NCBI GenBank assembly: GCA_050176815.1
Contig: JBFXHR010000012.1
Location: 15 to 64,014, forward strand
Direction of reading: 5' to 3'
From: Kiritimatiellia bacterium
GTDB lineage: Bacteria > Verrucomicrobiota > Kiritimatiellia > CAIQIC01 > Lenti-01
DNA: 64,000 nt
Shown: one piece after another, positions 7,355-53,043 of the stretch
Numbering within the stretch: the first letter of the stretch is position 1
Layout: each line of letters starts with the position of its first letter
The notes under the pieces: model-generated
Database searches by the model: none
Told to the model about the DNA's origin: nothing
The model's input: only the letters and a program-made list of their open reading frames with translations
Translations under genes and position numbers: made by a program

Positions 7355-7361
7355 GGCGTTC

Positions 7362-14472: not shown

Positions 14473-16551
14473 CTACAATTCAAACGTGTCCACGGGGCAT
14501 TCCGGCAGCGACCGCAGGAAGACGCGCCCGTACCATTTGGCGAGGAGGCGCGAATCGAGCACCACCACGATGCCTTCGTCGGTCTGCGAGCGCAGCAGGC
14601 GCCCGAAGCCCTGCCGGAATTTCAGCACCGCCTCCGGCAACGAATAGTCCCGGAACGGGTCGCCGCCTTTTTCCTTGATGCGCTTCAGCCGCGCCGCCAC
14701 CACGGGATGGTCCGGCACGGCGAACGGCAGGCGCGTGAGAATCACGTTGCGGAGCGCGTCGCCGCGCACGTCCACGCCCATCCAGAAACTGTCCAGTCCG
14801 AACAGCACGAAGCCCTTGTCTTCCCGAAACGTCTCCAGCATCGTGCGCCGCCCCAACCCCTCGCCCTGCGCCAGCAGCGTCAATCCGGCTTTTTCCAGAG
14901 GCTCGCGCAGGGCCGCGGCCGTCCGCTTCAGCAGTTCGCCGCTGGTAAAAAGCGCGAAGGCGCGCCCGCGCGTCTTCAGCGACCAGCGCAGGACGCCTTT
15001 GGCGACGGCCTCGGCGAACGCCTCCTTGTCCTTCGGATCGGGCGCGTTGGACGCCACGTGCAGGCGCATCTGCCGCGCATGGTCGAACGGCGACCCCAGG
15101 CAAAGCAATCCGCACCCGTCCCCCGCGCCGAGCCGGTCCCGGACGTATTCCAAATGGCCGCCCACCGCCAGCGTGGCGCTGGTCAGGACCACGCAGGGCA
15201 TGGCCTCGAAGAGCGCCGCATGCAGGAGCGGCGCCACCTCGATCGGCGCCGAGTGCAACACCGGCTGGCGGCGCTTGCCCTCGCGTTCGATCCAGTACAC
15301 GTGGTCCGGCAGCGACTGCCCCAAAAACGCCGCCAGCTGGTCGCCCAGCTCCGCCCCCTGTCCCCGCAAGCCGCGCAGCTCGGTCCGCGATTCTTCGTCC
15401 TGGTCTTCCAGTTCCTCGATCAGCGTCCCGAGGCGTCCAGACAGTTCCCGCAGCAGGTCGGGCACGTCGGTTTCCACCGCCAGCGGCCCCGGCACCGTTT
15501 TCTGGTCGTCGCGCGGGCCCAGCCCCGCCGCGCGCGGCACCGCATGGAACAGTTCCGCCGCCGCGTCCCACAGGCGCGTCGCCGTCTGCGCCGCCGGTCC
15601 GGCGCGCAGATAGCCCAGCAACCCCTTGCCCGTATCCGGAGAGAACAGCCGCCGCAGCCAGTGTTCGAACGAGTGCGGCGAAAGCCGGATGCCCAGATGG
15701 TCGCTCGCGGTGTCCTCGACCGTATGCGCCTCGTCCAGCACCACGGCGGCCACGTCGGGCAAAAAGCCCGCGCCCGCGCGCCGCAGGGCCAGATCGGAAA
15801 AGAACAGGTGGTGGTTGGCCACCAGCAGGTCGGCATCGCGCATCTTGGCGCGCGCCCGCTGCAGGAAACACCGCTGCCGCTCCGGGCATTTCGTCCCCAT
15901 GCAGTTGCCGTGCTCGGCGCAGACCGCGCTCCAGGCCTCGGCCGACGGCGGCCGGCGCATTTCCTGCACGCTGCCGTCTTCCGTGCGGTCCGCCCAGGCG
16001 CGGATGCGTTCCAGTTCCTCGGCCAGGCCTTCGCCGAACAGGTCCCGCTGGTGGTGGCGGGCGCGCGCCAGCCGGCGCAGGCACAGGTAGTTCATGCGCC
16101 CCTTCACCAGCGTGGCCCGGAACGGCGTCCCCAGCCGTTCCTGCAGCAGCGGAAGATCCTTGCCGACGAGTTGTTCCTGCAGCGAAATCGTGTGCGTGGA
16201 CACCATCGCGCGCGTGCCGGAACGCTTGGCGTGCAGAATCAGCGGCACCAGATAGGCCAGGCTTTTCCCCACCCCCGTTCCCGCCTCCACGACCAGATGC
16301 CGGTGGGCATCGAGCGCGTCGGCCACCGCGCGCGCCATGTCGACCTGCTGGGGCCGCGCCTCGTATTCGAAATCCCCGATGGGGGCGTCCGCCAAGACGC
16401 CGCCGGGAGCGAACGCCGCGCAGGCGGCCTCGCGCAACGGAGGACCGACGGGCGCGGAAACGCCCTGGATCGGCGCAATCACGGAGGGGGCTTTCGGCGC
16501 CGCGGGACGGGAGCGCGGCGCTCTATTCTTCCGGCGCGGCAGCCGGCGCAT
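14473..16551 (-). CDS. dinG: DinG/Rad3-family ATP-dependent DNA helicase
   Basis: FEYEARPQQVDMARAV (Q motif), GTGVGKSLAYLVP (Walker A), VVLDEAHTVED (DEAH), 4-Cys cluster CAEHGNCMGTKCPERQRC (Fe-S). Start placed at MRRLPRR (16551). The ORF-track N-terminal basic extension is doubtful. Confidence 0.8.
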   Translation of the reverse strand: MRRLPRRKNRAPRSRPAAPKAPSVIAPIQGVSAPVGPPLREAACAAFAPGGVLADAPIGDFEYEARPQQVDMARAVADALDAHRHLVVEAGTGVGKSLAYLVPLILHAKRSGTRAMVSTHTISLQEQLVGKDLPLLQERLGTPFRATLVKGRMNYLCLRRLARARHHQRDLFGEGLAEELERIRAWADRTEDGSVQEMRRPPSAEAWSAVCAEHGNCMGTKCPERQRCFLQRARAKMRDADLLVANHHLFFSDLALRRAGAGFLPDVAAVVLDEAHTVEDTASDHLGIRLSPHSFEHWLRRLFSPDTGKGLLGYLRAGPAAQTATRLWDAAAELFHAVPRAAGLGPRDDQKTVPGPLAVETDVPDLLRELSGRLGTLIEELEDQDEESRTELRGLRGQGAELGDQLAAFLGQSLPDHVYWIEREGKRRQPVLHSAPIEVAPLLHAALFEAMPCVVLTSATLAVGGHLEYVRDRLGAGDGCGLLCLGSPFDHARQMRLHVASNAPDPKDKEAFAEAVAKGVLRWSLKTRGRAFALFTSGELLKRTAAALREPLEKAGLTLLAQGEGLGRRTMLETFREDKGFVLFGLDSFWMGVDVRGDALRNVILTRLPFAVPDHPVVAARLKRIKEKGGDPFRDYSLPEAVLKFRQGFGRLLRSQTDEGIVVVLDSRLLAKWYGRVFLRSLPECPVDTFEL

Positions 16552-17611
16552 CGGCCGCGGCTTCCGCGGGCGCCGTCTCCGGCGCGGCGGCTTTCGACGC
16601 GACCGATGGGGCGATTTCCGCCAGCGGACCGGCAAACTTGATGGTCGCCTTGTCCCGCAGTTCCCCGATGTAGTCGTTCACGATTTTCTGCTGGGCCTTG
16701 GCTTTCATCGAGGCTTCCAGCCGTCCCTTGACTTCGTCGAACGGAACGACTTTCTTTTCCTGCTCTCCCGTCGCCCGGATCACGTGGAAGCCCACGGGCG
16801 ACTCCACCACTTCGCCGATTTCGCCGATGTTCTGGCCGTAGACGGCGTCTTCGAACGCTTTGTCCTCGCGCCCCTTGGGAATCACGCCCAGCGCGCCCCC
16901 GCGGCTGCGGCTCATGCACTCCGACACCTCGCCGGCGAGTTTTCCGAAATCGGCGCCTTCCAGCAGCGCCTTGCGGATGCCTTCCGCCTTCGCGCGCAGA
17001 TCGGCCTTGGCCGCTTCGGCCGCGTCTTTCGGCACCCGGACGAGGATATGCGAAGCCAGGCGCCCTTCCGGCTGGGTGAACTCTTCCAGATGCGCATCGT
17101 AGTAGGCCTTGGCCGTTTCGTCCGTCACCTCGGCGAACGCCGATTCCAAGCGATCCCGCAGGACTTTGTTCTTGAACAGGTCCAGGCGGAGATTCATCTC
17201 CACCTCTTCCATCGGGACGTTCGCATTCGCCAGCAGCATCGTCAGCGAGCCGCCCGGCAGTCCCTTTTCGAGATCCTTCTTGCCCTGCTCGATTTCCTCC
17301 TGCGAGACCAGCACGCCCGAACGTTCCATTTCCGCCTTCACCAACTGGCGGATCACCAGGTTGTCCACCGCCTGCTGCAGCACCTTCGCCTGCGCCGCCG
17401 ACATCTGTTCCGCCGGCAGATCCTTCGGCACGCTCGCAAACAGCCGGCCGGCCTCCTGCTGGATCTGGCCGGTGGTCAAGCCCACCTGATCCACCCAGAC
17501 CGACACTTCCGAGGCCCCGCCCCGGGGCTGGACCACCTGCGCGTCCTTCTTCCCGCAGCCCGCCGCCAACACCAAAGCCGAAATCCCGATCCACCGAATG
17601 AACTGCGTCAT
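16523..17611 (-). CDS. Parvulin-type peptidyl-prolyl isomerase lipoprotein (SurA/PrsA-like)
   Basis: Signal peptide plus lipobox LAAGC. SurA-N-like chaperone region followed by a parvulin core (RLASHILVRV...GGALGVIPKGR...VVESPVGFHVIR). Confidence 0.75.
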   Translation of the reverse strand: MTQFIRWIGISALVLAAGCGKKDAQVVQPRGGASEVSVWVDQVGLTTGQIQQEAGRLFASVPKDLPAEQMSAAQAKVLQQAVDNLVIRQLVKAEMERSGVLVSQEEIEQGKKDLEKGLPGGSLTMLLANANVPMEEVEMNLRLDLFKNKVLRDRLESAFAEVTDETAKAYYDAHLEEFTQPEGRLASHILVRVPKDAAEAAKADLRAKAEGIRKALLEGADFGKLAGEVSECMSRSRGGALGVIPKGREDKAFEDAVYGQNIGEIGEVVESPVGFHVIRATGEQEKKVVPFDEVKGRLEASMKAKAQQKIVNDYIGELRDKATIKFAGPLAEIAPSVASKAAAPETAPAEAAADAPAAAPEE

Positions 17612-17792: not shown

Positions 17793-18503
17793 ATGGCCAC
17801 CACCCTATTCATCCCCACCCTGAACGAGCTCGAAGCCATGCGCGTCGTCCTGCCCCAGATCGACCGGTCGTGGGTGGACCAGATCCTGGTCGTCGACGGC
17901 TCGACCGACGGCACCGCCGACTACGCCCGCGAGCACGGCTGCGAGGTCGTGGTCCAAAAGGAAAAAGGCCTGCGCCATGCCTTCATCGAAGGCTTTCCCC
18001 ACGTGCGCGGCGACTGGGTCATTACGTTCAGCCCCGACGGAAATTCGCCCGTCCGCGCCATCCCTCTCCTCATCGAAGAAATGAAAAAGGGCTACGACAT
18101 GGTGATCGCGTCCCGCTACCTGCCCCCGGCCAGGAGCGACGACGACGATCCCATGACCGCCTTCGGCAACTGGCTGTTCACGCACGCGATCAACGTCCTG
18201 CATGGACACGCCTGGAACCGCCCCTACACCGACGCGATGGTGATGTACCGCATCTACCGCACGAAGCTCTTCTACGAGCTGGACCTGGACCAGGAAGAAA
18301 GCTACGCCCCGGAAAAATGGTTCGGCACCATCCTCGGCATCGAGCCGCTGCTGTCCATCCGCGCCGCCAAGAAAAGGGTCAAGATCGGGGAAATCCCGGA
18401 AGACGAGCCCGCGCGCATCGGCGGCAAGCGCAAGCTCCAGCCCTTCCGCTGGGGCGGCGCCTACATGAGCCAGGTCTGGCGCGAATTGTATTTCTGGAAA
18501 TAG
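17793..18503 (+). CDS. GT2-family glycosyltransferase (polyprenyl-phosphate sugar synthase-like)
   Basis: MATTLFIPTLNELEAM...ILVVDGSTDGTADYA...DMVIASRY. GT2 DxD-type nucleotide-sugar binding region. Start chosen at MATTLF rather than the ORF-track upstream M. Confidence 0.7.
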   Translation: MATTLFIPTLNELEAMRVVLPQIDRSWVDQILVVDGSTDGTADYAREHGCEVVVQKEKGLRHAFIEGFPHVRGDWVITFSPDGNSPVRAIPLLIEEMKKGYDMVIASRYLPPARSDDDDPMTAFGNWLFTHAINVLHGHAWNRPYTDAMVMYRIYRTKLFYELDLDQEESYAPEKWFGTILGIEPLLSIRAAKKRVKIGEIPEDEPARIGGKRKLQPFRWGGAYMSQVWRELYFWK

Positions 18504-18839
18504 CGCTTCGCCCATGGTCCGCGCGCCGACAACGCTTAGGCTGGCCGACCTGGTCCCCGCCCGCAATCCCGGAGAGCTTCGGCGTCGGGCGGTTGTCCAC
18601 AATCCGCACACGGCGTTTCGGCGCTTCGCGGAGAATTCCGGCGCCCAGGCATGGGGGGCCTTCGCGGACCCCGAAAGAGACGGGCCTCGGCGCATGGCTC
18701 GCCGCCGCCGTCCTCCGATTCTGGGCGCCGTCCGCCGGGCGGGGGATCGGATTGCTGACTTTTCCCTTTGCGCGGGGCGAGGATTCGGCAATACAAGAGG
18801 TTTTTCCATGAAGATCTTGTCCATAAAGGAATGCCCGAG

Positions 18840-19925
18840 ATGAAAATCCTGATCACCGGTGGGTGCGGCTTTGTCGGCTCCGTTCTGGCCCGCAGCCTGT
18901 TGGAAGCGCGCGCAGGCCTGGAGATCGTGGGGATGGACAACTTGATCCGCCCGGGAAGCGAGATCCATCGCAGGACCCTGAACGCCCTCGGCGTCCGGCT
19001 GGTGCATGGGGACATCCGCTCCGCAAGCGATTTCGAGGGGTTGCCAAAGCTCGATTACGTGATCGATGCCGCCGCCTTGCCCAGCGTGCTGGCCGGAGTG
19101 GATGGACAGACCAGCAGCCGGCAGCTGATGGAACACAACCTCTACGGAACGGTCAATATCCTGGAACGATGCAAACGGGATGGGGCCGGATACATCCTGT
19201 TCAATACGAGCCGCGTCTATTCGATCCCCCCCTTGGCGGCCCTGCCGCTCCAGGTAGACGCGGAGGCTTACGTTCCCGACTTCAACCTCGTCGAGATCGA
19301 GGGGATGAGCCATCGGGGACTCGACGAGCGGTTCTCGACGAACCCGCCGCTGTCCCTTTACGGGACGTCCAAGCTGACTTCGGAAATCATCGCCCTGGAA
19401 TATGGGTCGTCGTTCGGCTTCCCCGTTTGGAGCAATCGGTGCGGCGTATTGGCGGGGGGGGGGCAATTGGGCCGTCCAGACCAGGGCGTTTTTTCGTATT
19501 GGATCCACAGCTGGCGCGAACGGAAGCCGCTCCGGTACGTCGGCTTCGATGGACGCGGGCACCAGGTTCGGGATTGCCTCCATCCGCGCGACCTGGTCGA
19601 GCTGCTCTTGAAACAAATGGACTACTGCGGAAACGACAAACCCCGGGTGCAGAACCTGTCCGGCGGAATGGAATCCGCGACTTCTTTGGCGCAATTGAGC
19701 CGCTGGTGCGAAGGCCGTTTTGGAAAACACTCCGTGGGGAGCGATGCGGCCTCCCGCCCGCATGACGTGCCCTGGCTCGTCCTGGATTCCCGTCTGGCGA
19801 AAGCCCAGTGGGGGTGGGAACCGCACACGCCCAAAGAAGCCATTTTCGAAGAGATTGCCCGCCACGCGGAAGAGCATCCCGACTGGTTGTCCTTGTCCTC
19901 CACCCCCTCGAGCGGAGTCCCATGA
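18840..19925 (+). CDS. NAD-dependent epimerase/dehydratase (extended SDR)
   Basis: MKILITGGCGFVGSVLARSL Rossmann motif and a YxxxK-like catalytic region (LYGTSKL). Start at ATG 18840. Confidence 0.8.
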   Translation: MKILITGGCGFVGSVLARSLLEARAGLEIVGMDNLIRPGSEIHRRTLNALGVRLVHGDIRSASDFEGLPKLDYVIDAAALPSVLAGVDGQTSSRQLMEHNLYGTVNILERCKRDGAGYILFNTSRVYSIPPLAALPLQVDAEAYVPDFNLVEIEGMSHRGLDERFSTNPPLSLYGTSKLTSEIIALEYGSSFGFPVWSNRCGVLAGGGQLGRPDQGVFSYWIHSWRERKPLRYVGFDGRGHQVRDCLHPRDLVELLLKQMDYCGNDKPRVQNLSGGMESATSLAQLSRWCEGRFGKHSVGSDAASRPHDVPWLVLDSRLAKAQWGWEPHTPKEAIFEEIARHAEEHPDWLSLSSTPSSGVP

Positions 19926-20713
19926 AGGAGCCCCCCGCCCGCCCCGCCGCATCCGAGGAACCGCTCAAGCTCCTGTCGGTCGTCATCCCCGCGCAAGACG
20001 AGGAAGGATGCCTGGCCGAGACCCTCGGACATCTGCATTCCACCTTGACGCTCCATGGAATCCCCCATGAAATCATTGTCGTGGACGATGGCAGTGCGGA
20101 TTCGACCTGGAGCCTTCTGCAAGGATTGAGCCCCGCCCTGCCCGAACTCCGCCCGGTTCAAAACGGCGGGCCTCGTGGATTTGGATGCGCCATCCGCTGC
20201 GGGCTCGAGCAGGTGACCGGAGATGCCGTCGTCATCGTGATGGCGGACGAGTCGGACGATTGCCGAGATGTCGTGGCCTACTGGGAAACCTTGAAAAAAG
20301 GGTACGACTGCGTATTCGGCAGCCGCTTCATGAAAGGCGGCGGCACCCGGGATTATCCGCCCCTCAAATACGTGCTGAACCGCATGGCGAACGGATTCAT
20401 CCGGTTGCTCTTCGGGATCAAGCTGAATGATACCACCAATGCCTTCAAAGCCTATCGGACCCGCGTCATCCAGGGGTGCATGCCCTTGCTCTCCATGCAC
20501 TTCAACTTGACGGTCGAATTGCCGCTCAAGGCGATCTGCCGGGGATACTCCTGGACCACCATCCCCATCACCTGGCGGAATCGGCAGTCCGGGGTGGCCA
20601 AACTGAAAATCAAGGAAATGGGCAGTCGTTACTTCTTCATCGTCATGTACGTCTGGCTTGAAAAATACTTCGGCCGCAGGGAGTGCAAAATCCGGCCCGA
20701 CGAGCGGGGATAA
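19922..20713 (+). CDS. GT2 glycosyltransferase, dolichol/polyprenyl-phosphate mannosyltransferase (DPM1)-like
   Basis: LSVVIPAQDEE...IIVVDDGSADST...VVIVMADESDD...TNAFKAYRTRV, typical of Dpm1/ArnC-type polyprenyl-P-sugar synthases. ATGA overlap with the epimerase stop (19922-19925). Confidence 0.8.
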   Translation: MKEPPARPAASEEPLKLLSVVIPAQDEEGCLAETLGHLHSTLTLHGIPHEIIVVDDGSADSTWSLLQGLSPALPELRPVQNGGPRGFGCAIRCGLEQVTGDAVVIVMADESDDCRDVVAYWETLKKGYDCVFGSRFMKGGGTRDYPPLKYVLNRMANGFIRLLFGIKLNDTTNAFKAYRTRVIQGCMPLLSMHFNLTVELPLKAICRGYSWTTIPITWRNRQSGVAKLKIKEMGSRYFFIVMYVWLEKYFGRRECKIRPDERG

Positions 20714-20967
20714 AACCCGTTCGCGCCTTCCCGGCCTCGTCGCCCATCTCATGCTGCCGCGAGATCCCGTGCGGCACTTCTGCGCCTTGGGGATGCCTCG
20801 ACCGGCCGCGGCCGGCCCGGCTTTGCCGAGGACATAGCCGCCCCCACCTTGTTTTCCGCCGGATCCATATCCTCCGGGAAAAGACCATGGAGGTACGGCG
20901 ATCGCGCGACCATCCAATTTTGGCCTTGTCGAAATCCAGAAAGCCTTCCAGATTGGATGGAAACGAG

Positions 20968-21133
20968 CCTCCCCGATGGCCACCCCCCTTTTCATCCCCA
21001 CCCTGAACGAGCTCGAAGCCATGCGCGTCGTCCGGCCCCAGATCGACCGCTCGCGGGTGGACCGGATTCTGGGGGTGGGCGGTTCGACCGACGCCGCCGC
21101 CGGGCATGTCCGCGAGACCGGGTTCCGGAATTA
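20968..21133 (+). pseudogene. Duplicated 5' fragment of the GT2 gene at 17793 (54-codon remnant ORF) immediately upstream of a TMTC-like gene
   Basis: 20965-21080 is about 85-90% identical to 17790-17905 (MATPLFIPTLNELEAMRVVRPQIDR... versus MATTLFIPTLNELEAMRVVLPQIDR...), then diverges and stops at TAG 21131-21133. Confidence 0.5.
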
Positions 21134-21145
21134 GATTTCTCCGCC

Positions 21146-23212
21146 ATGCAAGCCCAGGTCGCATCCCAACCGCGGTCGGCGCCCCACCCCCCGGCCGGCC
21201 GACGGCGGGTTTGGTTGCTTCCGGCTCTGTTGGCGTTGGTTCTGTTTGCCCCGGCCGTCGGATTCGATTTCATCAACTACGACGACGACCGCTACGTCTA
21301 CGACAATCCCCGCGTCACGGGCGGACCGACCGTGGAGAATCTGCGATGGGCGTTCACGGCCGTCCACGAGGACTGGTGGCTGCCGGTCCTGTGGATTTCC
21401 TACATGCTCGATTCGGCCCTGCTGGGCAAGGCTCCGGGGGGCTATCACCTGGTGAACGTGCTGTTGCACGCCGCGAATGCGGGCCTGCTCGGCTGGACGC
21501 TCTATCGCCTGACCCGCGCCCGCTGGCGCAGTCTCGCGGTGGCCGCGCTGTGGGCCGCGCATCCGCTGCGCATCGAATCCGTCGCCTGGATCACCGAACG
21601 CAAGGACGTGCTGAGCGGACTGTTCTTCTTTCTCGCGCTGCTCGCCTACGTCCGCCACGTCGAACGACCGTCCGCCGTTCGTTTCGGCCTCGTGTTCGGC
21701 GCCATGCTTCTCGGCCTGGCATCCAAGGCCTCGGTCATCGTCCTGCCGATTCTCCTCCTGTTGCTGGATTTCTGGCCCCTGCGCCGCGCCGAGCTCCCGT
21801 GGACGTCCGGCGCGGGAAAACCGTGGCGGCGCCTCGTCGCGGAAAAAATCCCGCTGTTTGCGCTGGCCGCGGTCTTTGCGGCCATCAATCTGCGCACGCA
21901 CGCCGGCGGAACCGGGCTCGGGTTGGATTACTCTTGGAGCCAGCGGGTCGCGTTGATTCCCGGCAACGTCTGGACCTACCTGCGGCTCGTGGCCTGGCCC
22001 GCGCATCTTTCCGTCTTCTATCCCGAAAACGATGCCGTGCCGATCGGCTCCGCGCTGGTCGCCCTGGCGGGACTGGCCGGGCTGACCGGCTGGTTCGCCC
22101 GACAAGCCCGGCGGCGCCCCCATTGGCCGGTCGGCTGGCTTTGGTTTCTCGTCGCGCTCCTGCCGATTCTCCGCGGCGTCCGCCTCGGAAACGCGGCCTA
22201 TGCCGACCGCTTCACGTATCTCCCTTCCATCGGGTTGACCCTGGCCGTCGTCTGGCAAGCGATGGGCGGCGCGGAGCGGAGCGCCGCCGCCCGCAGGGCA
22301 GGAGCGGGAGTCCTCGCGCTCCTGCTGGCCGCGTGCGTGGGCCAGACGGCCGCGGTTCTGCCGGCGTGGCGCCATTCGATTGGGCTTTATGAATACGCCC
22401 TGCGCTCGGAACCGGCCAACCCCGTTCTGCTCAACAATCTCGGAACCGCCCTGATGCTGGAGCAACGCAACGAAGAGGCCCTCGATCATTTCCGGCGCTC
22501 CCTCGCCGCCAATCCGGCCTATCTGCCCGCCCGGGCCAACCAGGCGCTGGTCCTGCATCGACTCGGCCGCCTCGCGGAAAGCCGGGCCGCGGCGGACCAA
22601 GGCCTCGACTGGGAACAGAATTCGCCGCCCCTCAACCACATGCTGGCCTCGCTTCTGCTGGGCGAAACGCCGCCGGAACCTCGGGCCGCGTTGCCGGATT
22701 CCCTCTCCCCCCGGGATCTGGGCCGACTGCTGGAACGCGGCTCCCTTCCGGCCGTGCTGGAGTTCCGCGATCTCTACCGCCGGCCGGCGCCCGCGCTCCT
22801 CGCGGAAATCCGGTCCGTCCAACTGGACTACGTCCGGCTGTGGCGCAGCGGCCGGAAGGACCGGGCCTGGCGTTTTTTCCTCTTTGCGCTGGCCGCCAAT
22901 CCGCACGACGTGTCCCTGCTCAACGATGCCGCCTGGCTGCTGGCCACCGATTCCGCGCCGCCCGCCGATGCGCGGCGCGCCCTCCTCCTGGCCCGGCGGG
23001 CCCATCGCCTCGCCGCGCCCCATCTCCAGGCTTCCATCCTCGACACGCTCGCCGCCGCGCTCGCCGCCGCCGGCCACTTCGACGAAGCGCAACGTGCCGC
23101 GCAAGAGGCCATCGGCTTGGCCACGCAAGCCGGCGACGCCCGCGCCGCCGACCAGATTTCCGCGCGCCTCGAAACCTATCGCAACCGCAAACCGTGGCGA
23201 GACGCCCCGTGA
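21146..23212 (+). CDS. TPR-repeat protein with N-terminal GT-C (PMT/TMTC-like, DUF1736-type) membrane domain. Putative protein O-mannosyl/glycosyltransferase, paralog 1.
   Basis: N-terminus FDFINYDDDRYVYDNPRV...HLVNVLLHAANAGLL...WAAHPLRIESVAWITERKDVLSGLFF, a signature shared with eukaryotic TMTC and bacterial DUF1736 proteins. C-terminal half is TPR-like repeats. Confidence 0.75.
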   Translation: MQAQVASQPRSAPHPPAGRRRVWLLPALLALVLFAPAVGFDFINYDDDRYVYDNPRVTGGPTVENLRWAFTAVHEDWWLPVLWISYMLDSALLGKAPGGYHLVNVLLHAANAGLLGWTLYRLTRARWRSLAVAALWAAHPLRIESVAWITERKDVLSGLFFFLALLAYVRHVERPSAVRFGLVFGAMLLGLASKASVIVLPILLLLLDFWPLRRAELPWTSGAGKPWRRLVAEKIPLFALAAVFAAINLRTHAGGTGLGLDYSWSQRVALIPGNVWTYLRLVAWPAHLSVFYPENDAVPIGSALVALAGLAGLTGWFARQARRRPHWPVGWLWFLVALLPILRGVRLGNAAYADRFTYLPSIGLTLAVVWQAMGGAERSAAARRAGAGVLALLLAACVGQTAAVLPAWRHSIGLYEYALRSEPANPVLLNNLGTALMLEQRNEEALDHFRRSLAANPAYLPARANQALVLHRLGRLAESRAAADQGLDWEQNSPPLNHMLASLLLGETPPEPRAALPDSLSPRDLGRLLERGSLPAVLEFRDLYRRPAPALLAEIRSVQLDYVRLWRSGRKDRAWRFFLFALAANPHDVSLLNDAAWLLATDSAPPADARRALLLARRAHRLAAPHLQASILDTLAAALAAAGHFDEAQRAAQEAIGLATQAGDARAADQISARLETYRNRKPWRDAP

Positions 23213-23458
23213 GTCCCCGCGCCGGACTTTCCGCCCCCACGCCTTTTTCCGCCTTTTTCCAAGGCCGTGTTTTTCGCCGATCTTTCGGCGGACGCGGCAT
23301 TTCCGCCGCATTTCTTCGGGTAAAACGATGCTGATTTATTTTTCACTTTTTGCATTGCCAGACCTTGCGCACCCGTGGTAAAAACAAAACCAAGATTGGA
23401 AAGGGTTTTTTCTTTCCACCGACAGTTTAAAAAGAAACGAATACCAAAGGAGAACACG

Positions 23459-24184
23459 ATGAAGAAATTGGCAATTGGTTTGACGATCGCCCTGGTGGCG
23501 GGAATGGCCTCGGCCGCGATTCTCGGATCGGACGACTTTAGCTATACCGGCGCGTTGACCGCCAATGGCTGGGTCGCCTACAGCGGCACGGACGGCAGCG
23601 TCACCGCCAACGGCAGCGTGGCCGCGGTCGGTTCGGGCGCGGAAGACATCCGCATGACGGCGTTTGGCGATCAGGGCAGCGGGACGGTCTATGCGTCCTT
23701 CACCCTGAACCTGCTTTCGGCCGCCACGGGCAGCGCCTACACGTTCGGCTTCATCGATGGTGCGACCATGGAAAGCCGCTGGGGCTTCACCGCCACCGCC
23801 TCGGACTACAGCATGGCCTCCTACGGCACGGGCACCGCCGTTATCGGCAACTCGTCCGCGATGTCCTTCTCGACGGACTACCTGATCACGATGAGCTACA
23901 ACGCCACGACGTTCACCCACAGCCTGTGGATCAACTCCGACGGCACCGATGAAGCCACCCCCGACATGACCCTCTCCGCGGGGACCAACACGGGCATCGA
24001 CAGCTTCTTCATCCGCCAGGCGACTCCGTTCGGCGCGGGCAGCGCGTCCTACACGGTGGACAGCCTGGTGGTCGGCTCGACGTTCGCGGACGTTACTCCG
24101 GCCGCCGTTCCCGAGCCCGCCACGATGGGCCTCCTCGGCCTCGGCGCCCTCGCGATGGTCCTCCGCCGCAAGATGAGCAAGTAA
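23459..24184 (+). CDS. PEP-CTERM sorting-domain secreted protein
   Basis: Signal peptide MKKLAIGLTIALVAGMASA. C-terminus VPEPATMGLLGLGALAMVLRRKMSK (PEP motif, TM helix, basic tail). Ser/Thr/Gly/Asn-rich body. Shine-Dalgarno aaggag 7 nt upstream of the ATG. Confidence 0.8.
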   Translation: MKKLAIGLTIALVAGMASAAILGSDDFSYTGALTANGWVAYSGTDGSVTANGSVAAVGSGAEDIRMTAFGDQGSGTVYASFTLNLLSAATGSAYTFGFIDGATMESRWGFTATASDYSMASYGTGTAVIGNSSAMSFSTDYLITMSYNATTFTHSLWINSDGTDEATPDMTLSAGTNTGIDSFFIRQATPFGAGSASYTVDSLVVGSTFADVTPAAVPEPATMGLLGLGALAMVLRRKMSK

Positions 24185-24207
24185 TTCCGATCTGATCGGA
24201 AACAAAA

Positions 24208-24234
24208 CCGCCGGGTTCGCCCGGCGGTTTTTTC
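24208..24234 (+). terminator. Intrinsic terminator after the PEP-CTERM gene
   Basis: GC hairpin ccgccgggttcgcccggcgg followed by tttttt. Confidence 0.55.
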
Positions 24235-24246
24235 GTGCCCTCTCTT

Positions 24247-24330
24247 CGGCGGTTCAGGTAGGGACGGCTCTCCGAGCCGTCCGTTTTCTTGCATATTCGG
24301 ACATCTCTTAGAGATGTCCCTACCACATCG
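24247..24330. repeat. REP-like compound palindromic element (GGTAGGGACG...hairpin...hairpin...CGTCCCTACC), copy 1, at the 3' end of the RAYT gene
   Basis: ggtaggGACGGCTCtccGAGCCGTCcgttttcttgcatattcGGACATCTCttaGAGATGTCCctacc. Its GTAGGGAC arm overlaps the RAYT stop codon. Confidence 0.6.
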
Positions 24331-24781
24331 GCGTCGGGACCTCCCACACGTGCGGCCAGTCCTCTGCTCGTGCAGTCAGCCCTTTGCGCACCGGATTCTG
24401 CCGGACGTAAAACGCCTTCTCTTCGTATTCCGTCGCGTGGCGGATGCGATGGTCGAAGAAATCCCGCGGCCATTCGATTCCCAACGTCCGCGCCGTCCAG
24501 CGCTTCCATTCCCTCATCACGGCCTTCATGCCGGGATTTTCCGGGAAACTGGCCATCAGATGCACGTGGTCGGGCATAACCAGAAACAGGCGCACCCACC
24601 AGCGGCCGGCCTCCATTTGCCGGCGGGCGTTCTCCCACAGCCGCCGGGGGCAGTCCATTTCCAGCAAGGGCGAACCGCCGCGCGATTTCGCGTTCAGGGT
24701 AATGAAAAACACCGCGCCGGCGGCGACCCACGGCGGCACCTCGTGCGGCAATCGCTTCCGCTGTGGAAGGAAATCGTTCAT
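24320..24781 (-). CDS. REP-associated tyrosine transposase (RAYT; IS200/IS605 Y1-HUH family, TnpA_REP-like)
   Basis: 153-aa product from MNDFLPQRKRLPH... with HUH motif MPDHVHLM. Flanked on both sides by the same palindromic repeat family. The ORF-track upstream extension is rejected. Confidence 0.7.
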   Translation of the reverse strand: MNDFLPQRKRLPHEVPPWVAAGAVFFITLNAKSRGGSPLLEMDCPRRLWENARRQMEAGRWWVRLFLVMPDHVHLMASFPENPGMKAVMREWKRWTARTLGIEWPRDFFDHRIRHATEYEEKAFYVRQNPVRKGLTARAEDWPHVWEVPTPMW

Positions 24782-24839
24782 CGTCGAAAAACGTATTTCC
24801 CCTGCGCCCGGCGAGCCGAAAGCTTTGAAGGCTGTTTGG

Positions 24840-24915
24840 CCGGAAGGTAGGGACGCTTCCACGAAGCGTCCGCGCTCTTCCCCAAACGGACGCCTCGCAG
24901 AGGCGTCCCTACCAT
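24840..24915. repeat. REP-like compound palindromic element, copy 2, just upstream of the RAYT start
   Basis: ggtaggGACGCTTCcacGAAGCGTCcgcgctcttccccaaacGGACGCCTCgcaGAGGCGTCCctacc. Same architecture as copy 1. Confidence 0.6.
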
Positions 24916-27023
24916 CCCTCCCGGTAGGCCTTTCCCTCCCGATACAGCGCCAGCCGCTTTTCGATTTCCCGCGCCAGCGCTTCATCCTTCGCCAACGCCA
25001 GCGCCTGCTCGCCGGCTTCCACGGCGCCCGCGTAATCTCCGGCCGCCGCCCGCGCGACGCCCAGCGTGTCCAGCACCGTTCCGGATTTCCATTGCGTTGC
25101 TTCCACGGCCCGTTCGGCCAAGCCCACCGCCCGCGCGACGATGTCCGGCGGCGTGCGTTCGTCCGTCGCCGCCAGCCAAGCCACGTTGTTCAGCAACTGG
25201 ACGTTCTGGCCCCACTCCGATTCAAGCAACCGATCGAAGTACCGCCAGGCGTAGGCCCGACCGCCCATCTGCCATTGAACCACGTAGTGCGGAAACAGCG
25301 ATTCATAGGCGGGCTGAATCGTCCCGCCCGCCCGGCGCGCGGATTCCACCAGCCGCCGGGCCTCGCTGGAACGTCCGGCCTCCAGATAGGCCCGGAGAAG
25401 TTCGTTGAGAATCCTCGCGTCGGCCGGCCGTCGCCGCCGCGCATCCTGCAGATGCGGAATCGCCTCCCCCGGGCGGCCTTCATGGAGCAGGGACATTCCC
25501 CAGGCGGTGGGGACCATCCAATATGCAGAGGGATCGTTCTGCCAAGACCGCAACACTTCGCGCGCCTCCTCGGTCCGGCCTTGCAGGACTTGGACGTATC
25601 CCAGATTGCCGGCGCAAATCGAGCGCTCCGCCTGATTTTGCACCTGAAGATCCAGCACCCGCTCGAAATGGCTTTCCGCTTCCTCCACGTCCCCCCGGGA
25701 AAAATGCCAGACCCCGGAGTTCATCAAAGCAATCGGCTGCCCGGGCGAAATCGCCAGCGCCCGCTCCAGCAAAGCGCCCGAGTCTTTCCAGACCGGCAAT
25801 TGCCGACGGGTCCATCCGGCCGCCACCGCCAAGGACAATCCCCCCGCCACGATCCACGCCCGGGTCCGCCCTCCCGCCGTTGCCAGCCATCCGGCTACGG
25901 CCAAAGACAGACCCATGGCCGGCAAGTAGGCGTAGCGGTCCGCGCGGCTCTGCGCGCCAAACGCCACGATGCCGCTCACCGGCAGCAGCGCCAAGACGAA
26001 CCACAGCCAGCCGACCAGTCCGGCCGGCCGGGTCCGCCGTCCATGTCCAACCGCCCACGTCCCCGCCGCGATCAGCGCCGCCGCGACCGCCACGCGCGTG
26101 GCGGTCAGCCCCGCATCGGCATACAGCACCGCCAGATTCCGGGGAACCAGCGTCCGCCACAGGTAGAAAACGATGTGGAGCGGCACGCGCGCCAGCCGCG
26201 CGCCAAGGCTTTCCGGATGCAGGCTTCCGGCCGCTTCGTGTCCCAGCACCGACAAGGCCGCCGAGGCGGCGGCCAGCCCCCAGAACAGCCATTTTTCCGC
26301 GATCAGACCGGGCCACTTCCGCAGATCCTGAGCCGTCCACTTCACCCGGCCCAACGGCCAAACATCCAATAGGAGCAGCAAGCCCGGCACGACCATCAGG
26401 GTCGATTTAGACATCAGACCCAACGCGAGCAACCCCGCCGCAGCGTAGAACCAGCCCCGCGCGCGGCGCGTTCCCGAACGGCTTTGGACATAGGCTCCAA
26501 GGCACAGGAGAAAAAACAGGCCGCTCAGCACGTCCTTGCGGCAGGAAACCCACGCAACGGCCTCCACCCGCAACGGATGCCACGCCCAGAACAGCGCGGC
26601 CCAGCAGGCCGCCCAGCGGTTCCCGGTCCAGCGGCGCAGCAGCCCAAACAACAGCACGGCATTCAGGGCGTGCAGCAGAACGTTGGTGAAGTGAAACGGA
26701 AACGGCCGGCGCCCGCCCCATTCCACGTCCAGCGCGTAGGACAAGCCCGTCAGCGGAATCCACAGGTTTTCCTGCATCGTCCCGAAAATCGTCCGCACCC
26801 CTTCCCCCGTGAAGCCGTTGGCCACCGCGGGATTGTCGACGACGTAGCGGTCGTCGTCCAGCAAGACGAAGTCGTAGCCCGTCGCCGGCCAAAAGACCGC
26901 CAAGGTTGAAGCCAAAATCAACAGCCCCAGGAATACATCAACGTGGCGGCGGAAAAAGCCGGTTGGCAGCGGAGATTTCACGCTGGTCTTCCTAGCCGAT
27001 TGGCAAACCGAAAACCAGTTCAA
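24909..27023 (-). CDS. TPR-repeat / GT-C (TMTC/PMT-like) membrane glycosyltransferase, paralog 2
   Basis: YDFVLLDDDRYVVDNPAV...HFTNVLLHALNAVLL...WAWHPLRVEAVAWVSCRKDVLSGLFF. C-terminal TPR repeats. Same domain order as 21146..23212. Confidence 0.75.
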   Translation of the reverse strand: MNWFSVCQSARKTSVKSPLPTGFFRRHVDVFLGLLILASTLAVFWPATGYDFVLLDDDRYVVDNPAVANGFTGEGVRTIFGTMQENLWIPLTGLSYALDVEWGGRRPFPFHFTNVLLHALNAVLLFGLLRRWTGNRWAACWAALFWAWHPLRVEAVAWVSCRKDVLSGLFFLLCLGAYVQSRSGTRRARGWFYAAAGLLALGLMSKSTLMVVPGLLLLLDVWPLGRVKWTAQDLRKWPGLIAEKWLFWGLAAASAALSVLGHEAAGSLHPESLGARLARVPLHIVFYLWRTLVPRNLAVLYADAGLTATRVAVAAALIAAGTWAVGHGRRTRPAGLVGWLWFVLALLPVSGIVAFGAQSRADRYAYLPAMGLSLAVAGWLATAGGRTRAWIVAGGLSLAVAAGWTRRQLPVWKDSGALLERALAISPGQPIALMNSGVWHFSRGDVEEAESHFERVLDLQVQNQAERSICAGNLGYVQVLQGRTEEAREVLRSWQNDPSAYWMVPTAWGMSLLHEGRPGEAIPHLQDARRRRPADARILNELLRAYLEAGRSSEARRLVESARRAGGTIQPAYESLFPHYVVQWQMGGRAYAWRYFDRLLESEWGQNVQLLNNVAWLAATDERTPPDIVARAVGLAERAVEATQWKSGTVLDTLGVARAAAGDYAGAVEAGEQALALAKDEALAREIEKRLALYREGKAYREGW

Positions 27024-27051
27024 ATCCGGCGCCGGCCGTTTTCGCAGGCAA

Positions 27052-28878
27052 CTATTCGCGATAGGGCGTTCCGGATCGATACAGATCCAGACGCTTCCGG
27101 ATCGCTTTCGCCTCTACCGGATCCGTTGTCAACGCCAATGCTTGCTCGCCGGCTTCGACGGCCCCCGCGAAATCCCCGGCGGCCGCGCGGGCCACGCCCA
27201 AGGTGTCCAGCATCGGCGCGAATTTTCCGTGGGTCCAAGCCACCGCGCGCTCCGCGTGTTCGGTTGCGCGCGCGCCCACTTCCGGCGTCGCCTCCGGATC
27301 CGTGGCCAGCAACCAGGCCAGATTGTTCAAGGCCCGCGCGGACAGCAAATCTTCTGCAACCGCCGCTTGGTAATGCCGGACGGCCTCTTTCTTGCGCCCC
27401 GCCGCGACCAGGGCGTTGGCGAGATTGACGCGCGCCTTGTTGCGCTTGGGCTGGATTTCGAGACTGCGCTGCAGATGGATTTCGGCTTCCGGCCAGCGGC
27501 CCTGCTCCATGTACCACATCCCCAGATTCCCGTGGGCAAGCGCATTGCGCTCCACAACGGAAATCACCTGCTGGAACAGGGTCTCCGTCGTCCGCCACAC
27601 GGCCGTCTGCCCGCGCGAAACCACCGCCAGCGCAATCGCCAGTACCGTCGCGGATGCCAGGAGGTAGGGACGCCTCTCCGAGGCGTCCGTTGACCTGCTT
27701 TGCCGGACGCCTTGGCAAGGCGTCCCTACCTGCCGGTCCCGGATTTTCCCCGCCCCCCAAACCGCCGCCACGATCAAACCAATATGCGGCAAATAGGTGT
27801 AGCGATCCGCCCAGGCCTGGCTCCCCACCTGCACCAGCCCGATCATCGGCACCAGCGCCCCTAAAAACCAGAACCAACCCACGGTCAACCAAGGCCGGCG
27901 GCGGAACTGGCCGGCCGCCCCCGCCGTCAAAACGGCCACCAACGCCAGCGAAACAGCCATCCGAAGCAGGGAATGGCCTCCGATCGGATGGGGATAGAAG
28001 GCGGCCAGGCCCGTTGGCCAAACCAGCATCCGCACGTACTCCGAATAGGCCACGCCCGCGTGGACGATACGCGTGGCCAACGGCAACACGTCCAATGCGC
28101 CAACGGCTCCGCCTTTCCCCTGCGCCCAAACCGTCGCGGCGCACGACCCGGCCGCCAGCGCGAACAACGGCCATTTTTCCGCCGCCAGTTTCCGCCACGG
28201 TTCCGCCGGCCAACGGCCCAGCGGCCAGACGTCCAGCAGCAGCAGCAGAAACGGAAGCGTCACCCAGGTCGGCTTGGCCATCAGGCTCAAGGCAAAAAAC
28301 ACCGCCACCGGGCCAATTCGAAACGTTGTAGGCCGGGTGCCCCCACCCGGCGCATTCCGTCCATGCATCCCCACCGCCAGCAGTCCGAACAGCATCGCCA
28401 ACACGTCCTTGCGCTCCGAAATCCAGACGACCGATTCCACGCGCAGCGGATGCACCGCCCACAGCGCCGCCGCCATCCACGACAACCCCGCGCGTCGCGT
28501 CATCCGGCGCAATGCCCAAAACAGCAAGATCGCGTTGGCCGCGTGCAGCAGCAGGTTCGTGAGATGGTGCCCGGCCGGATTCAAGCCGTACAGTTCCACG
28601 TCCGCCATGTGCGACAGCCAGGCTAGCGGGTGCCAGTTGGAGGCATGCCCCGTCGTCAAGGCCCAGCGAACGGCGGCGATCGTCAGCCCCTGCGCCACCT
28701 GCGGATTCTCGGTCACGTACACGTCGTCGTCGAACCGCACGAATCCGCATTCCAGCGCCCCGCCGAACGCGAAGAACACCAGCGCCGCCAGGCCCGCGGC
28801 GGCGACGGCCCCCCGCGCCCGCCGGGCCCTTTCCGGGAACGCCGTTTCCCCCAGCATCTCCTCGTTTCTTGCCGCCAT
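27052..28878 (-). CDS. TPR-repeat / GT-C (TMTC/PMT-like) membrane glycosyltransferase, paralog 3, carrying an in-frame REP insertion
   Basis: FVRFDDDVYVTENPQV...HLTNLLLHAANAILL...WAVHPLRVESVVWISERKDVLAMLF. C-terminal TPR repeats. Contains the extra loop segment ...VGTPCQGVRQSRSTDASERRPY... encoded by a REP element. Confidence 0.7.
   Translation of the reverse strand: MAARNEEMLGETAFPERARRARGAVAAAGLAALVFFAFGGALECGFVRFDDDVYVTENPQVAQGLTIAAVRWALTTGHASNWHPLAWLSHMADVELYGLNPAGHHLTNLLLHAANAILLFWALRRMTRRAGLSWMAAALWAVHPLRVESVVWISERKDVLAMLFGLLAVGMHGRNAPGGGTRPTTFRIGPVAVFFALSLMAKPTWVTLPFLLLLLDVWPLGRWPAEPWRKLAAEKWPLFALAAGSCAATVWAQGKGGAVGALDVLPLATRIVHAGVAYSEYVRMLVWPTGLAAFYPHPIGGHSLLRMAVSLALVAVLTAGAAGQFRRRPWLTVGWFWFLGALVPMIGLVQVGSQAWADRYTYLPHIGLIVAAVWGAGKIRDRQVGTPCQGVRQSRSTDASERRPYLLASATVLAIALAVVSRGQTAVWRTTETLFQQVISVVERNALAHGNLGMWYMEQGRWPEAEIHLQRSLEIQPKRNKARVNLANALVAAGRKKEAVRHYQAAVAEDLLSARALNNLAWLLATDPEATPEVGARATEHAERAVAWTHGKFAPMLDTLGVARAAAGDFAGAVEAGEQALALTTDPVEAKAIRKRLDLYRSGTPYRE
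27660..27728. repeat. REP-like compound palindromic element, copy 3, located inside CDS 27052..28878 and translated in-frame
   Basis: ggtaggGACGCCTCtccGAGGCGTCcgttgacctgctttgccGGACGCCTTGgcaAGGCGTCCctacc. The reverse complement translates in the gene frame as QVGTPCQGVRQSRSTDASERRPYLL. Confidence 0.6.
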
Positions 28879-47344: not shown

Positions 47345-47349
47345 CGATT

Positions 47350-52959: not shown

Positions 52960-53043
<84 letters not shown>

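Follow-up and report, generated by a model that had tools for sequence, protein, structure and literature searches.

The animal TMTCs have 11 transmembrane (TM) helices; their N-terminus is cytoplasmic, their C-terminal TPR domain lies on the opposite side of the membrane, and a DD pair opens the first exoplasmic loop (PMC7801869; PMC11292533). [quoted passage not shown] The S. mutans Pgf operon comprises PgfS (GT-A), PgfE (epimerase) and PgfM1/PgfM2 (GT-C), and its acceptors are sorting-signal-bearing surface proteins (adhesins) encoded in the same cluster (PMC12041528). In the ArnC/ArnT and GtrB/GtrC pairs, a GT2 loads undecaprenyl phosphate with a sugar that a GT-C enzyme then passes on at the periplasmic face, the acceptors being lipid A or O-antigen.

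The locus investigated here, positions 17793-28878 of a 64-kb stretch of DNA (the window), encodes two soluble GT2s, an SDR epimerase, three GT-C/TPR paralogs (A, B and C) and one PEP-CTERM ORF (Table 1). GC3 frame analysis and translation recovered the genes and coordinates listed in a preliminary description of this DNA. From homology and gene context, genomic throughout, we read the locus as a putative periplasmic protein O-glycosylation cluster dependent on undecaprenyl-phosphate sugars, with the PEP-CTERM protein as its likely acceptor, and give this reading an even chance of being correct. Upstream, four more large membrane proteins (5735-14455; two PMT_2, one DUF2079) could equally use the lipid-linked donors of this locus. 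The window also carries a Wzy_C+TPR protein, a Wzz/BY-kinase and an EpsL-like porin; neither a flippase nor an exosortase is present in its 64 kb.

Table 1 Features of the candidate glycosylation cluster and its flank (window positions).
Feature	Coordinates	Strand	Evidence
PpiC/SurA-like periplasmic prolyl isomerase, lipoprotein-type N-terminus (LAAGC)	16523..17611	-	Pfam Rotamase, 75 bits
GT2a, soluble 236-aa GT2, predicted polyprenyl-phosphate sugar synthase (DPM1/ArnC/GtrB type)	17793..18503	+	Pfam Glycos_transf_2, 63 bits
SDR nucleotide-sugar epimerase, CDP-tyvelose 2-epimerase-like	18831..19925	+	Pfam Epimerase, 97 bits
GT2b, soluble 263-aa GT2, predicted polyprenyl-phosphate sugar synthase	19922..20713	+	Pfam, 71 bits
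Truncated GT2a copy (first ~50 codons), directly 5' of gene A	20976..21134	+	Nucleotide identity to GT2a
GT-C/TPR paralog A, 688 aa	21146..23212	+	Paralogy to B/C, motifs, Pfam TPR matches
Small secreted PEP-CTERM protein, 241 aa, signal peptide; candidate acceptor	23459..24184	+	Pfam PF07589, 31.8 bits (cut-off 20.7 bits)
Intrinsic terminator-like hairpin and T-run, 3' of the PEP-CTERM gene	24204..24233	+	Sequence AAAACCGCCGGGTTCGCCCGGCGGTTTTTT, read directly
GT-C/TPR paralog B, 704 aa	24909..27023	-	Paralogy to A/C, motifs, Pfam TPR matches
GT-C/TPR paralog C, 608 aa, modelled member	27052..28878	-	

A, B and C proved to be true paralogs, as first described, with pairwise identities of 38-42% over nearly their full length (E 1e-84 to 1e-90). 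All three carry the motifs [YLF]DDD.YV (residues 45/55/49 in A/B/C), H..N.LLHA (101/111/105) and HPLR.E[SA]V (139/149/143), and further motifs (E/C)RKDVL, D.WPL and ADR[YF].Y. Two family alignments (41 and 35 members) show no substitution at D50, D51, H143, P144, R156, K157, K202, D216, W218, P219, D358 and R359 (C numbering); the DD, RKD and DR(Y) motifs are thus kept throughout. Each protein is predicted to start with an Arg-rich N-terminus, to cross the membrane with ~11 TM helices and to end in a TPR domain, whose repeats Pfam places C-terminally in each paralog. AF2 models reached pLDDT values of 90 and 89, and Foldseek searches with the membrane domain alone returned, at high probability, GT-C enzymes only (STT3, ArnT, AglB, Pmt4, PglB, Pmt1/2 and DPY19; TM-score ≤0.55). 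These models support the assignment of A/B/C as predicted GT-C-fold enzymes with TMTC architecture and a periplasmic DD motif, and their use of polyprenyl-phosphate sugars is highly probable.

The likeness to animal TMTC1-4, drawn from descriptions and motifs, covers TM number, DD and TPR layout. Counterparts of the TMTC motifs (A/B/C sequence first) are M1 (DD), M2 (NWHPL vs SHKSYRPL), M3 (RKD vs RxD), the M4 Lys (K202), M6 (P344) and M7 (DRYxY vs ERxxY). In contrast, the M4 Glu and M5 Asp-Trp metal ligands of TMTCs are replaced by K-P/A/S and F-Y-P, several paralogs stand in tandem, and the carrier would be undecaprenyl rather than dolichyl. The loop signature DUF1736, the Pfam marker of TMTCs, was found in 0/35 GT-C/TPR family members, so the "TMTC-like" label of the preliminary description stands for architecture (GT-C fold, ~11 TM helices, DD, C-terminal TPR) and motifs rather than for family membership. 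Pfam searches of A/B/C gave no DUF1736 or PMT_2 match and nothing reaching a PMT threshold (paralog B matched PMT weakly, E 0.048); JGI annotation calls several family members "protein O-mannosyl-transferase". Relative to the fungal and actinobacterial PMT O-mannosyltransferases (GT39), A/B/C lack the MIR domain, carry a C-terminal TPR domain instead, and are 11% identical to yeast Pmt4 (9e61). The best NCBIfam match of their TPR cap is PrsT, the XrtA/PEP-CTERM TPR lipoprotein (TIGR02917; E 3e-15 to 5e-19), over model positions 783-872 for A and B and 740-869, the same end region, for C. These matches score 55-68 bits, far short of a cut-off of 312 bits; PrsT lacks a GT-C domain, and the likeness may be generic to TPR caps.

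TfpW, likened here by description, shares the bacterial GT-C and TPR architecture with A/B/C but differs in its substrate (a type IV pilin, not exosortase cargo), its sugar (D-Araf) and its occurrence as a single gene with no paralog array. The Pgf operon, again by description (PMC12041528), has the same parts and logic (GT2, epimerase, GT-C, clustered acceptor); it differs in being Gram-positive and serving sortase/LPXTG rather than exosortase/PEP-CTERM cargo, and the description consulted mentions no TPR domain in its GT-C enzymes. The pathway logic has precedents in the Pgf operon and in pilA-tfpW, which work alike.

Since the structures most like A/B/C include ArnT and the matches of the GT2s include ArnC, the sugar might instead go to a glycolipid or a polysaccharide (lipid A/LPS core, exopolysaccharide or peptidoglycan), in the manner of ArnC/ArnT. 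The TPR domain would then be a scaffold, and a PEP-CTERM gene would lie nearby only through the clustering of exosortase cargo genes with genes for envelope polysaccharides; exosortases do sit in EPS loci (PMC12188702), and the PMT_2/ArnT-like, Wzy_C+TPR, Wzz/BY-kinase and EpsL-like porin genes of the window fit this account. Against it, proteins are the acceptors of most of the structural matches (STT3, PglB, AglB, PMT and DPY19), and TfpW, one characterised bacterial enzyme of exactly this architecture, glycosylates a protein encoded beside it. The GT-C/TPR and PEP-CTERM pair is moreover kept in contexts where no EPS genes are visible (SAM synthetase/PTS, tRNA synthetases, LepA and MarR/RND). 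ArnC, GtrB and ArnT recur among the matches of GT2a/GT2b or the GT-C/TPR proteins, but ArnT and GtrC have no TPR domain, and the C-terminal TM helices of ArnC and GtrB are missing from GT2a and GT2b. We consider a non-protein acceptor quite improbable, and a protein acceptor the somewhat better bet overall.

On the donor side, GT2a and GT2b matched nothing but polyprenyl-phosphate glycosyltransferases, both in solved structures and in the leading NCBIfam models, consistent with the synthase-like role first proposed for both; no TM segment was predicted in either. The best NCBIfam matches of GT2a were AglJ, Dol-P-hexose transferase, ArnC and PpgS; in the PDB it came closest to 5mlz, the Dol-P-Man synthase of P. 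furiosus (E 5e-11), and to ArnC. GT2b matched 5mlz (E 7e-21, residues 18-234), then ArnC and GtrB, and the NCBIfam PgfS model (E 5e-13); matches to this model are far under its 500-bit cut-off. The top PDB match of the epimerase, TaTyvE (9rl0, E 1.3e-24, residues 4-335), supports a nucleotide-sugar epimerase of the SDR type; the stop of the epimerase gene overlaps the GT2b start by 4 bp. The truncated GT2a copy is identical to 17793-17942 at 127/150 nt (95% across the first 60 nt); together with a RAYT transposase and REP elements inside the cluster, it marks a recent rearrangement.

That rearrangement would suit unrelated envelope genes brought together by chance and sharing no pathway, as would the distribution of the epimerase-GT2b module. 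Relatives of GT2b at 65-73% identity occur in more than 535 metagenome loci, many of the longer ones with an epimerase directly 5'; this widespread, conserved module mostly lacks GT-C/TPR or PEP-CTERM neighbours, and no PEP-CTERM ORF was found across 80 such loci. At one locus (L001) genes for two other membrane proteins, one a PMT_2 protein, take the place of GT2-epimerase-GT2. GT2a orthologs, however, are 62-93% identical across phyla and head an operon directly 5' of five GT-C/TPR genes (L171) or lie among such genes (L172 and L167), and L130 is a tight operon of GT-C/TPR, epimerase and GT2b genes. Together with the PEP-CTERM linkage described below (10/10 related contigs; permutation P ~2e-4), these synteny data make chance juxtaposition very remote.

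The PEP-CTERM ORF is the only one in the 64 kb; its product is Ser/Thr/Gly-rich (core Ser+Thr 29%) and the most divergent of its group (core identity 17-23%). Each of the 10 Kiritimatiellia-type contigs contains a single PEP-CTERM ORF, placed 0-2.6 kb from a GT-C/TPR gene; small PEP-CTERM genes homologous to that of the window adjoin GT-C/TPR genes in all related contigs, which span at least 5 different genomic contexts with otherwise changing neighbours. Orthologs of paralog A occur at L164, L165, L168 and L171, and those of B adjoin those of C at L001, L164 and L165. As the ten loci are related by descent, they attest conservation rather than independent association. Among 80 loci from other phyla, 7/11 PEP-CTERM ORFs lay less than 600 bp from a GT-C/TPR gene vs 1.7 expected (permutation P ~2e-4). 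The PEP-CTERM proteins adjoining GT-C/TPR genes have signal peptides and 19-33% Ser+Thr, and those from different phyla have non-homologous cores. These results support the pairing as a conserved linkage and no accident of one contig. Outside the clade it is no general rule, since 70/80 loci there lack a PEP-CTERM gene at distances up to 10 kb.

The GT-C/TPR family is moreover very large (72,967 clusters at 50% identity, E ≤1e-3), so PEP-CTERM proteins cannot be its general substrate. With arrays reaching 5-7 paralogs, A/B/C might be general or otherwise-targeted periplasmic protein glycosyltransferases (acting, for example, on a PpiC-type isomerase, pilins or outer-membrane proteins), the PEP-CTERM protein being one client or an unmodified co-regulated component. 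Next to several arrays stands a prolyl isomerase (PpiC in the window and at L001, where the ortholog is 71% identical and in the same position; cyclophilin at L166) or a signal peptidase (S26 peptidase, L165/L166), and in streptococci a GT-A/GT-C pathway modifies PrsA, a PpiC-type protein (PMC12041528). The prolyl isomerase of the window is a possible alternative acceptor or helper, but its Ala/Pro-rich C-terminal tail has just three Ser/Thr. One PEP-CTERM gene per array despite changing neighbours, and the cross-phylum enrichment, also speak against a general or different target, which we hold to be unlikely but worth reckoning with. That the PEP-CTERM protein is an acceptor of A/B/C we put slightly below evens.

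In the preferred, PEP-CTERM-directed scheme, the TyvE-like SDR would epimerise a nucleotide-hexose on the cytoplasmic side, GT2a and GT2b would each load a sugar onto undecaprenyl phosphate, as their homologies suggest, and the lipid-linked sugars would then be flipped into the periplasm. There, judging from fold and motifs, A/B/C would move the sugar to protein Ser/Thr, with the acceptor held by the periplasmic TPR domain. The invariant Asp-Asp opens the first periplasmic loop, and the conserved Lys202 and Asp358-Arg359 sit where the TMTC phosphate-binding motifs are. The preferred acceptor, as the linkage suggests, would be the PEP-CTERM protein encoded among A/B/C, which would receive its sugar once exported by Sec, either ahead of exosortase processing or in the course of it. 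Mannose as the transferred sugar is a guess, and a doubtful one.

A literature search found no published description of the GT-C/TPR and PEP-CTERM pairing, in agreement with its presentation as previously undescribed. The pairing makes the GT-C/TPR proteins the first concrete candidates for glycosyltransferases acting on PEP-CTERM proteins.

The window comes from a Kiritimatiellia metagenome-assembled genome. Because the DNA is 63–70% G+C, we chose genes by codon-position GC and then translated them. The gene coordinates that the preliminary description had assigned within 17793-28878 proved correct, as did its proposal that the three GT-C/TPR proteins (A, B and C) are paralogs (38–42% identity), and all of the motifs it had quoted were found in A, B and C. 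The cluster contains no Rfam family, riboswitches included, and scans for sigma-70 promoters and terminators were uninformative, with a result at the chance-expected level. BamA and the three tRNA genes form an ordinary housekeeping context.

Features of the window and of related contigs (L001, L002, L164-L170, nine contigs with homologs of C)
Feature	Contig	Position	Strand	Remark
Four large polytopic membrane proteins in a row	window	5735-14455	-	
PpiC/SurA-like isomerase	window	16523-17611	-	lipoprotein-type N-terminus
PpiC/SurA-like isomerase	L001	18660-19778		lipoprotein-type N-terminus
GT2a	window	17793-18503	+	Pfam Glycos_transf_2
SDR epimerase	window	18831-19925	+	Pfam Epimerase
GT2b	window	19922-20713	+	Pfam Glycos_transf_2; 4-bp overlap with epimerase stop
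GT2a 5' remnant	window	20976-21134	+	159 bp; first ~50 codons, ends in stop; directly upstream of A
GT-C/TPR A	window	21146-23212	+	many TPR families in Pfam
PEP-CTERM protein	window	23459-24184	+	Pfam PF07589
REP-associated tyrosine transposase-like gene	window	24320-24778	-	Y1_Tnp 24.1 bits vs 23 cut-off; HUH motif VMPDHVHLM
GT-C/TPR B	window	24909-27023	-	many TPR families in Pfam
GT-C/TPR C	window	27052-28878	-	many TPR families in Pfam
Wzy_C (O-antigen-ligase-like) with C-terminal TPR; Wzz/BY-kinase (EpsF/EpsG-like); EpsL-like beta-barrel porin	window	44439-51411	-	
BamA (Omp85 + POTRA)	window	53064-55478	-	skipped by simple ORF list (longer ORF overlaps)
Three tRNA genes	window	52960-53040, 60823-60893, 61415-61488		
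Cyclophilin-type isomerase	L166	14604-16037		
Signal peptidase I	L165	7075-8193		
Signal peptidase I	L166	8851-9975		
~660-710-aa family	L001	3773-5833, 7784-9862		
~660-710-aa family	L165	15163-17295		
~660-710-aa family	L166	15868-19961		
Flanks: MarR/RND efflux	window, L164			
Flanks: PpiC/DinG	window, L001			
Flanks: LepA/signal peptidase	L165, L166			
Flanks: SAM synthetase/PTS	L167			
Flanks: Phe-tRNA synthetase	L168			
Flanks: MnmA/UvrD	L002, L169			
Flanks: EF-G-like	L170			

In the full-length AF2 model of C (pLDDT 90.1, pTM 0.89), about 11 long membrane helices precede a TPR solenoid. When the membrane domain was modelled alone (pLDDT 89.2), the only high-probability Foldseek matches were GT-C enzymes (STT3, ArnT, AglB, Pmt4, PglB, Pmt1/Pmt2, AftD and DPY19), placing the GT-C/TPR proteins by multi-span membrane fold with the solved members of this superfamily. 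Sequence searches revealed little: phmmer of C against PDB sequences matched the TPR part only, and an HMM built from 35 membrane domains returned zero matches there. The preliminary description had named the absence of acidic catalytic residues as an argument against its proposal; the acidic DD pair of the first extracytoplasmic loop (Asp50-Asp51, directly past TM1) is present in A, B and C and invariant in both the 41-member and the 35-member family alignments, as are H143-P144, R156-K157, K202, D216/W218/P219 and D358-R359.

With 11 TM helices (AF2), an Arg-rich N-terminus and TPR Pfam matches at residues 430-600, these proteins have the architecture of the TMTC family (CAZy GT105); we infer the sidedness. 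DUF1736, the TM7-TM8 loop signature of TMTC, was not detected on A, B or C at E ≤ 10, nor on any of 35 family members at E ≤ 1. The label TMTC-like therefore refers to architecture and to motif resemblance; membership of the TMTC family proper failed the DUF1736 Pfam test. Compared by eye with the seven TMTC motifs published by Eisenhaber et al. (PMC7801869), the family has conserved counterparts of M1 (DD), M3 (RxD), the M4 lysine, M6 and M7 (ERxxY versus DRYxY here), and a similar NWHPL in place of M2 SHKSYRPL, whereas the glutamate of M4 and the Asp-Trp of M5, which belongs to the DUF1736 loop, are unconserved, in line with the lack of DUF1736 matches among the 35 members. PMT (GT39) hallmarks were missing from A, B and C: Pfam searches found neither PMT_2 on the membrane domains (E ≤ 10) nor a MIR domain, and the sole Pfam match to these membrane domains was PMT on B (E 0.048); PMT_2 matches did occur in 12 of the 35 family members. 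By predicted fold, topology and catalytic motif, A, B and C would act like TMTC, PMT or TfpW enzymes.

Searches with the membrane domain alone retrieved 72,967 clusters at 50% identity at E ≤ 1e-3, 42,993 at E ≤ 1e-10 and 15,945 at E ≤ 1e-30, from Verrucomicrobiota, Planctomycetota, Acidobacteriota, Desulfobacterota, Gemmatimonadota, Nitrospinota and other phyla. Members are usually labelled merely "tetratricopeptide repeat protein".

A pattern scan of the 64 kb found a single PEP-CTERM ORF, and it lies inside the cluster; its PEP motif, hydrophobic helix and basic tail score above cut-off (PF07589 31.8 bits vs 20.7; TIGR02595 25.2 vs 16). We then surveyed about 20 kb on each of nine related contigs carrying homologs 47-64% identical to C. 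Exactly one PEP-CTERM ORF was present on 9/9, a count that speaks for conservation and not for independent association, since these Kiritimatiellia loci share descent; the distances between PEP-CTERM and GT-C/TPR genes, window included, were 1, 98, 112, 152, 173, 188, 361, 1683, 2374 and 2602 bp. The encoded proteins are small (205-255 aa) and all above the TIGR02595 cut-off, the eight syntenic homologs at 24-27 bits vs 16. Those of the window, L001, L002 and L164-L166 are mutually homologous and fast-evolving (pairwise identity 25-39%, n = 6) with near-identical tails, PEPATM(G/S)LLGLGALAMVLRRK, the window's copy being the most divergent.

Outside this clade, we analysed 80 loci from other phyla, altogether 1.32 Mb of one-genome-per-species contigs. 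Among them were 11 PEP-CTERM ORFs, encoding small proteins with signal peptides and 19-33% Ser+Thr; 7 of the 11 lay less than 600 bp from a GT-C/TPR gene, with 1.7 expected from permuting positions locus by locus (P about 2e-4). At 70 of the 80 loci there was no PEP-CTERM gene nearby, so PEP-CTERM proteins would be clients of a subset of GT-C/TPR proteins at most. One conserved "substrate family" across phyla was rejected, as BLAST of the PEP-CTERM proteins revealed no common core domain.

Several further features accompany the PEP-CTERM genes. The transposase-like gene separates the PEP-CTERM gene from B, flanked by two composite palindromes of ~68-76 bp at 24257-24324 and 24842-24917 (GGTAGGGACG...CGTCCCTACC), and may explain the inverted orientation of the PEP-CTERM gene relative to B and C; in L167, too, a Y1_Tnp gene directly follows the PEP-CTERM gene. 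A third copy of this REP-like palindrome (27657-27736) lies in frame within the coding sequence of C, where it encodes the TM10-TM11 loop (residues ~381-407; pLDDT <50 at 387-396). The ~660-710-aa protein family, which has no Pfam match, occurs in related GT-C/TPR and PEP-CTERM clusters and is absent from the window. In L001, L164 and L168, the PEP-CTERM gene has a neighbour that encodes an unannotated protein of ~500 aa, and a 686-aa spermine-synthase-like protein with TPR lies between the PEP-CTERM and GT-C/TPR genes in L002 (7566-9626) and L169 (7742-9802).

For GT2a and GT2b, the only PDB sequence matches below E 1e-6 were 5mlz, ArnC and GtrB, and their GT-A domains are nearest to known polyprenyl-phosphate glycosyltransferases. 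Of these, 5mlz is the Dol-P-Man synthase of P. furiosus (E 5e-11 for GT2a, 7e-21 for GT2b). Neither protein has a TM segment, which agrees with their earlier description as DPM1-like. Their top NCBIfam matches (AglJ, Dol-P-hexose transferase, ArnC, PpgS and PgfS) all scored far below the curated equivalog cut-offs, AglJ giving 90.5 bits for GT2a and 59.8 for GT2b vs 325, so the assignment stops at the level of the enzyme group. The SDR protein encoded between them is a putative TyvE-like enzyme by full-length similarity, nearest to CDP-tyvelose 2-epimerase (9rl0, E 1.3e-24, residues 4-335; 1orr, E 8e-20). CDP-tyvelose 2-epimerase converts CDP-glucose and CDP-mannose into each other (PMC7851689, PMC13098431), which may offer a lead, rather than a result, as to the sugar of the cluster.

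The two GT2 genes differ in their genomic company. GT2b orthologs 65-73% identical occur in more than 535 metagenome loci, many of the longer ones with an epimerase (49-60% identical) directly upstream. Among 80 GT2b loci, a TMTC-like gene adjoins GT2b in L130 only, where the genes form a tight operon; in L094 it is 6 kb off. No PEP-CTERM ORF was found anywhere in these loci (0/80). Because it mostly lacks GT-C/TPR or PEP-CTERM neighbours, epimerase-GT2b is a widespread donor module, unspecific to this system. This strongly conserved two-gene module (window 18831-20713; L084-L163) occurs on numerous metagenome contigs from soil and fresh water, frequently with a second SDR upstream, and its function appears to be without earlier description. 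Neighbour clustering gave no universal partner of GT2b beyond the epimerase and the second SDR, returning mostly antisense-ORF artefacts of high-GC DNA.

GT2a, unlike GT2b, is tied to GT-C/TPR transferases. Its orthologs are 62-93% identical: in L171 one (79%) lies 6 bp ahead of five GT-C/TPR paralogs, in L172 one stands amid GT-C/TPR and amino-sugar-modifying genes, and in L167 one (74%) lies 9.5 kb from a GT-C/PEP-CTERM pair; in L173 (Elusimicrobia) the ortholog belongs to a nucleotide-sugar cluster that lacks GT-C/TPR genes. In the window, the GT2a remnant ahead of A is 95% identical to GT2a over 60 nt and 85% over 150 nt; together with the order in L171, where an intact GT2a precedes five GT-C/TPR genes, it fits an ancestral GT2a-A arrangement. 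The adjacency of GT2a and GT2b and the L171 operon suggest, as gene context, a polyprenyl-phosphate-linked donor for the GT-C/TPR proteins.

Large membrane proteins of putative GT-C type are unusually frequent in this neighbourhood. The four at 5735-14455 comprise a PMT_2 protein (true start probably near MREKLPLF), a DUF2079 protein (633 aa), a second PMT_2 protein (999 aa, large C-terminal domain) and a protein of 703 aa that has no annotation; they may use the same lipid-linked donors, and they are not homologous to the unannotated ~690-aa proteins of related clusters. The genes at 44439-51411 belong to an export apparatus of the exopolysaccharide or PEP-CTERM-system type; the annotated genes of the window include no exosortase. 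Protein-maturation genes recur next to GT-C/TPR arrays.

Taken from homology and gene context, the best-supported reading is a classical two-step lipid-linked pathway. Cytoplasmic GT2 enzymes would load undecaprenyl phosphate with sugars, a flippase (none was found in the window) would carry the lipid-linked sugars across the membrane, and the periplasmic GT-C enzymes would pass them to Ser/Thr of a TPR-held protein. The acceptor would most likely be the co-conserved PEP-CTERM protein; an alternative is the PpiC-type isomerase, a syntenic neighbour whose streptococcal counterpart, PrsA, is glycosylated by a pathway of the GT-A/GT-C type (PMC12041528).

The lipid-linked pathway with a dedicated acceptor is not a new principle, since two experimentally studied systems share its design. 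P. aeruginosa TfpW has a DDX motif and 11 TM helices, with its TPR domain in the periplasm; tfpW adjoins its substrate gene pilA, and loss of TfpW abolishes pilin glycosylation (bioRxiv 10.1101/2020.04.19.049825). The S. mutans Pgf operon (PMC12041528) encodes the GT-A enzyme PgfS, the epimerase PgfE and the GT-C enzymes PgfM1/PgfM2, and clusters with genes for sortase-anchored adhesin substrates. We found no paper tying GT-C enzymes to PEP-CTERM proteins, so it is the pairing that would be previously undescribed, and not the TfpW/Pgf logic, which was already known. Literature searches on TMTC homologs and DUF1736 among bacteria, and on O-glycosylation in Verrucomicrobia, likewise returned no relevant work.

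PEP-CTERM proteins are widespread proteins of surfaces and biofilms. Their glycosylation is still treated as conjecture in recent work, and we know of no transferase named for them so far; the linkage described here turns this suspicion into a testable gene pair. Among prokaryotes, the GT-C/TPR family is the nearest architectural counterpart of the human TMTC enzymes, for which structures and the mode of acceptor recognition are, to our knowledge, still unsolved, and the cluster provides a first functional handle on a bacterial membrane-enzyme family among the largest unannotated (~43,000 50%-identity clusters, E ≤ 1e-10). We consider it possible, if rather doubtful, that the TMTC-like GT-C/TPR proteins form a very large family, so far unrecognised, of periplasmic protein O-glycosyltransferases that are each dedicated to their substrates, and that some paralogs (in Kiritimatiellia, part of Verrucomicrobiota, Planctomycetota and Acidobacteriota) serve exosortase cargo as dedicated enzymes and bind the PEP-CTERM protein by a PrsT-like TPR cap, with glycosylation obligatory and coupled to exosortase sorting. 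If such TPR-cap-guided, sorting-coupled glycosylation were true, the long-suspected PEP-CTERM glycosylation machinery would get its name.
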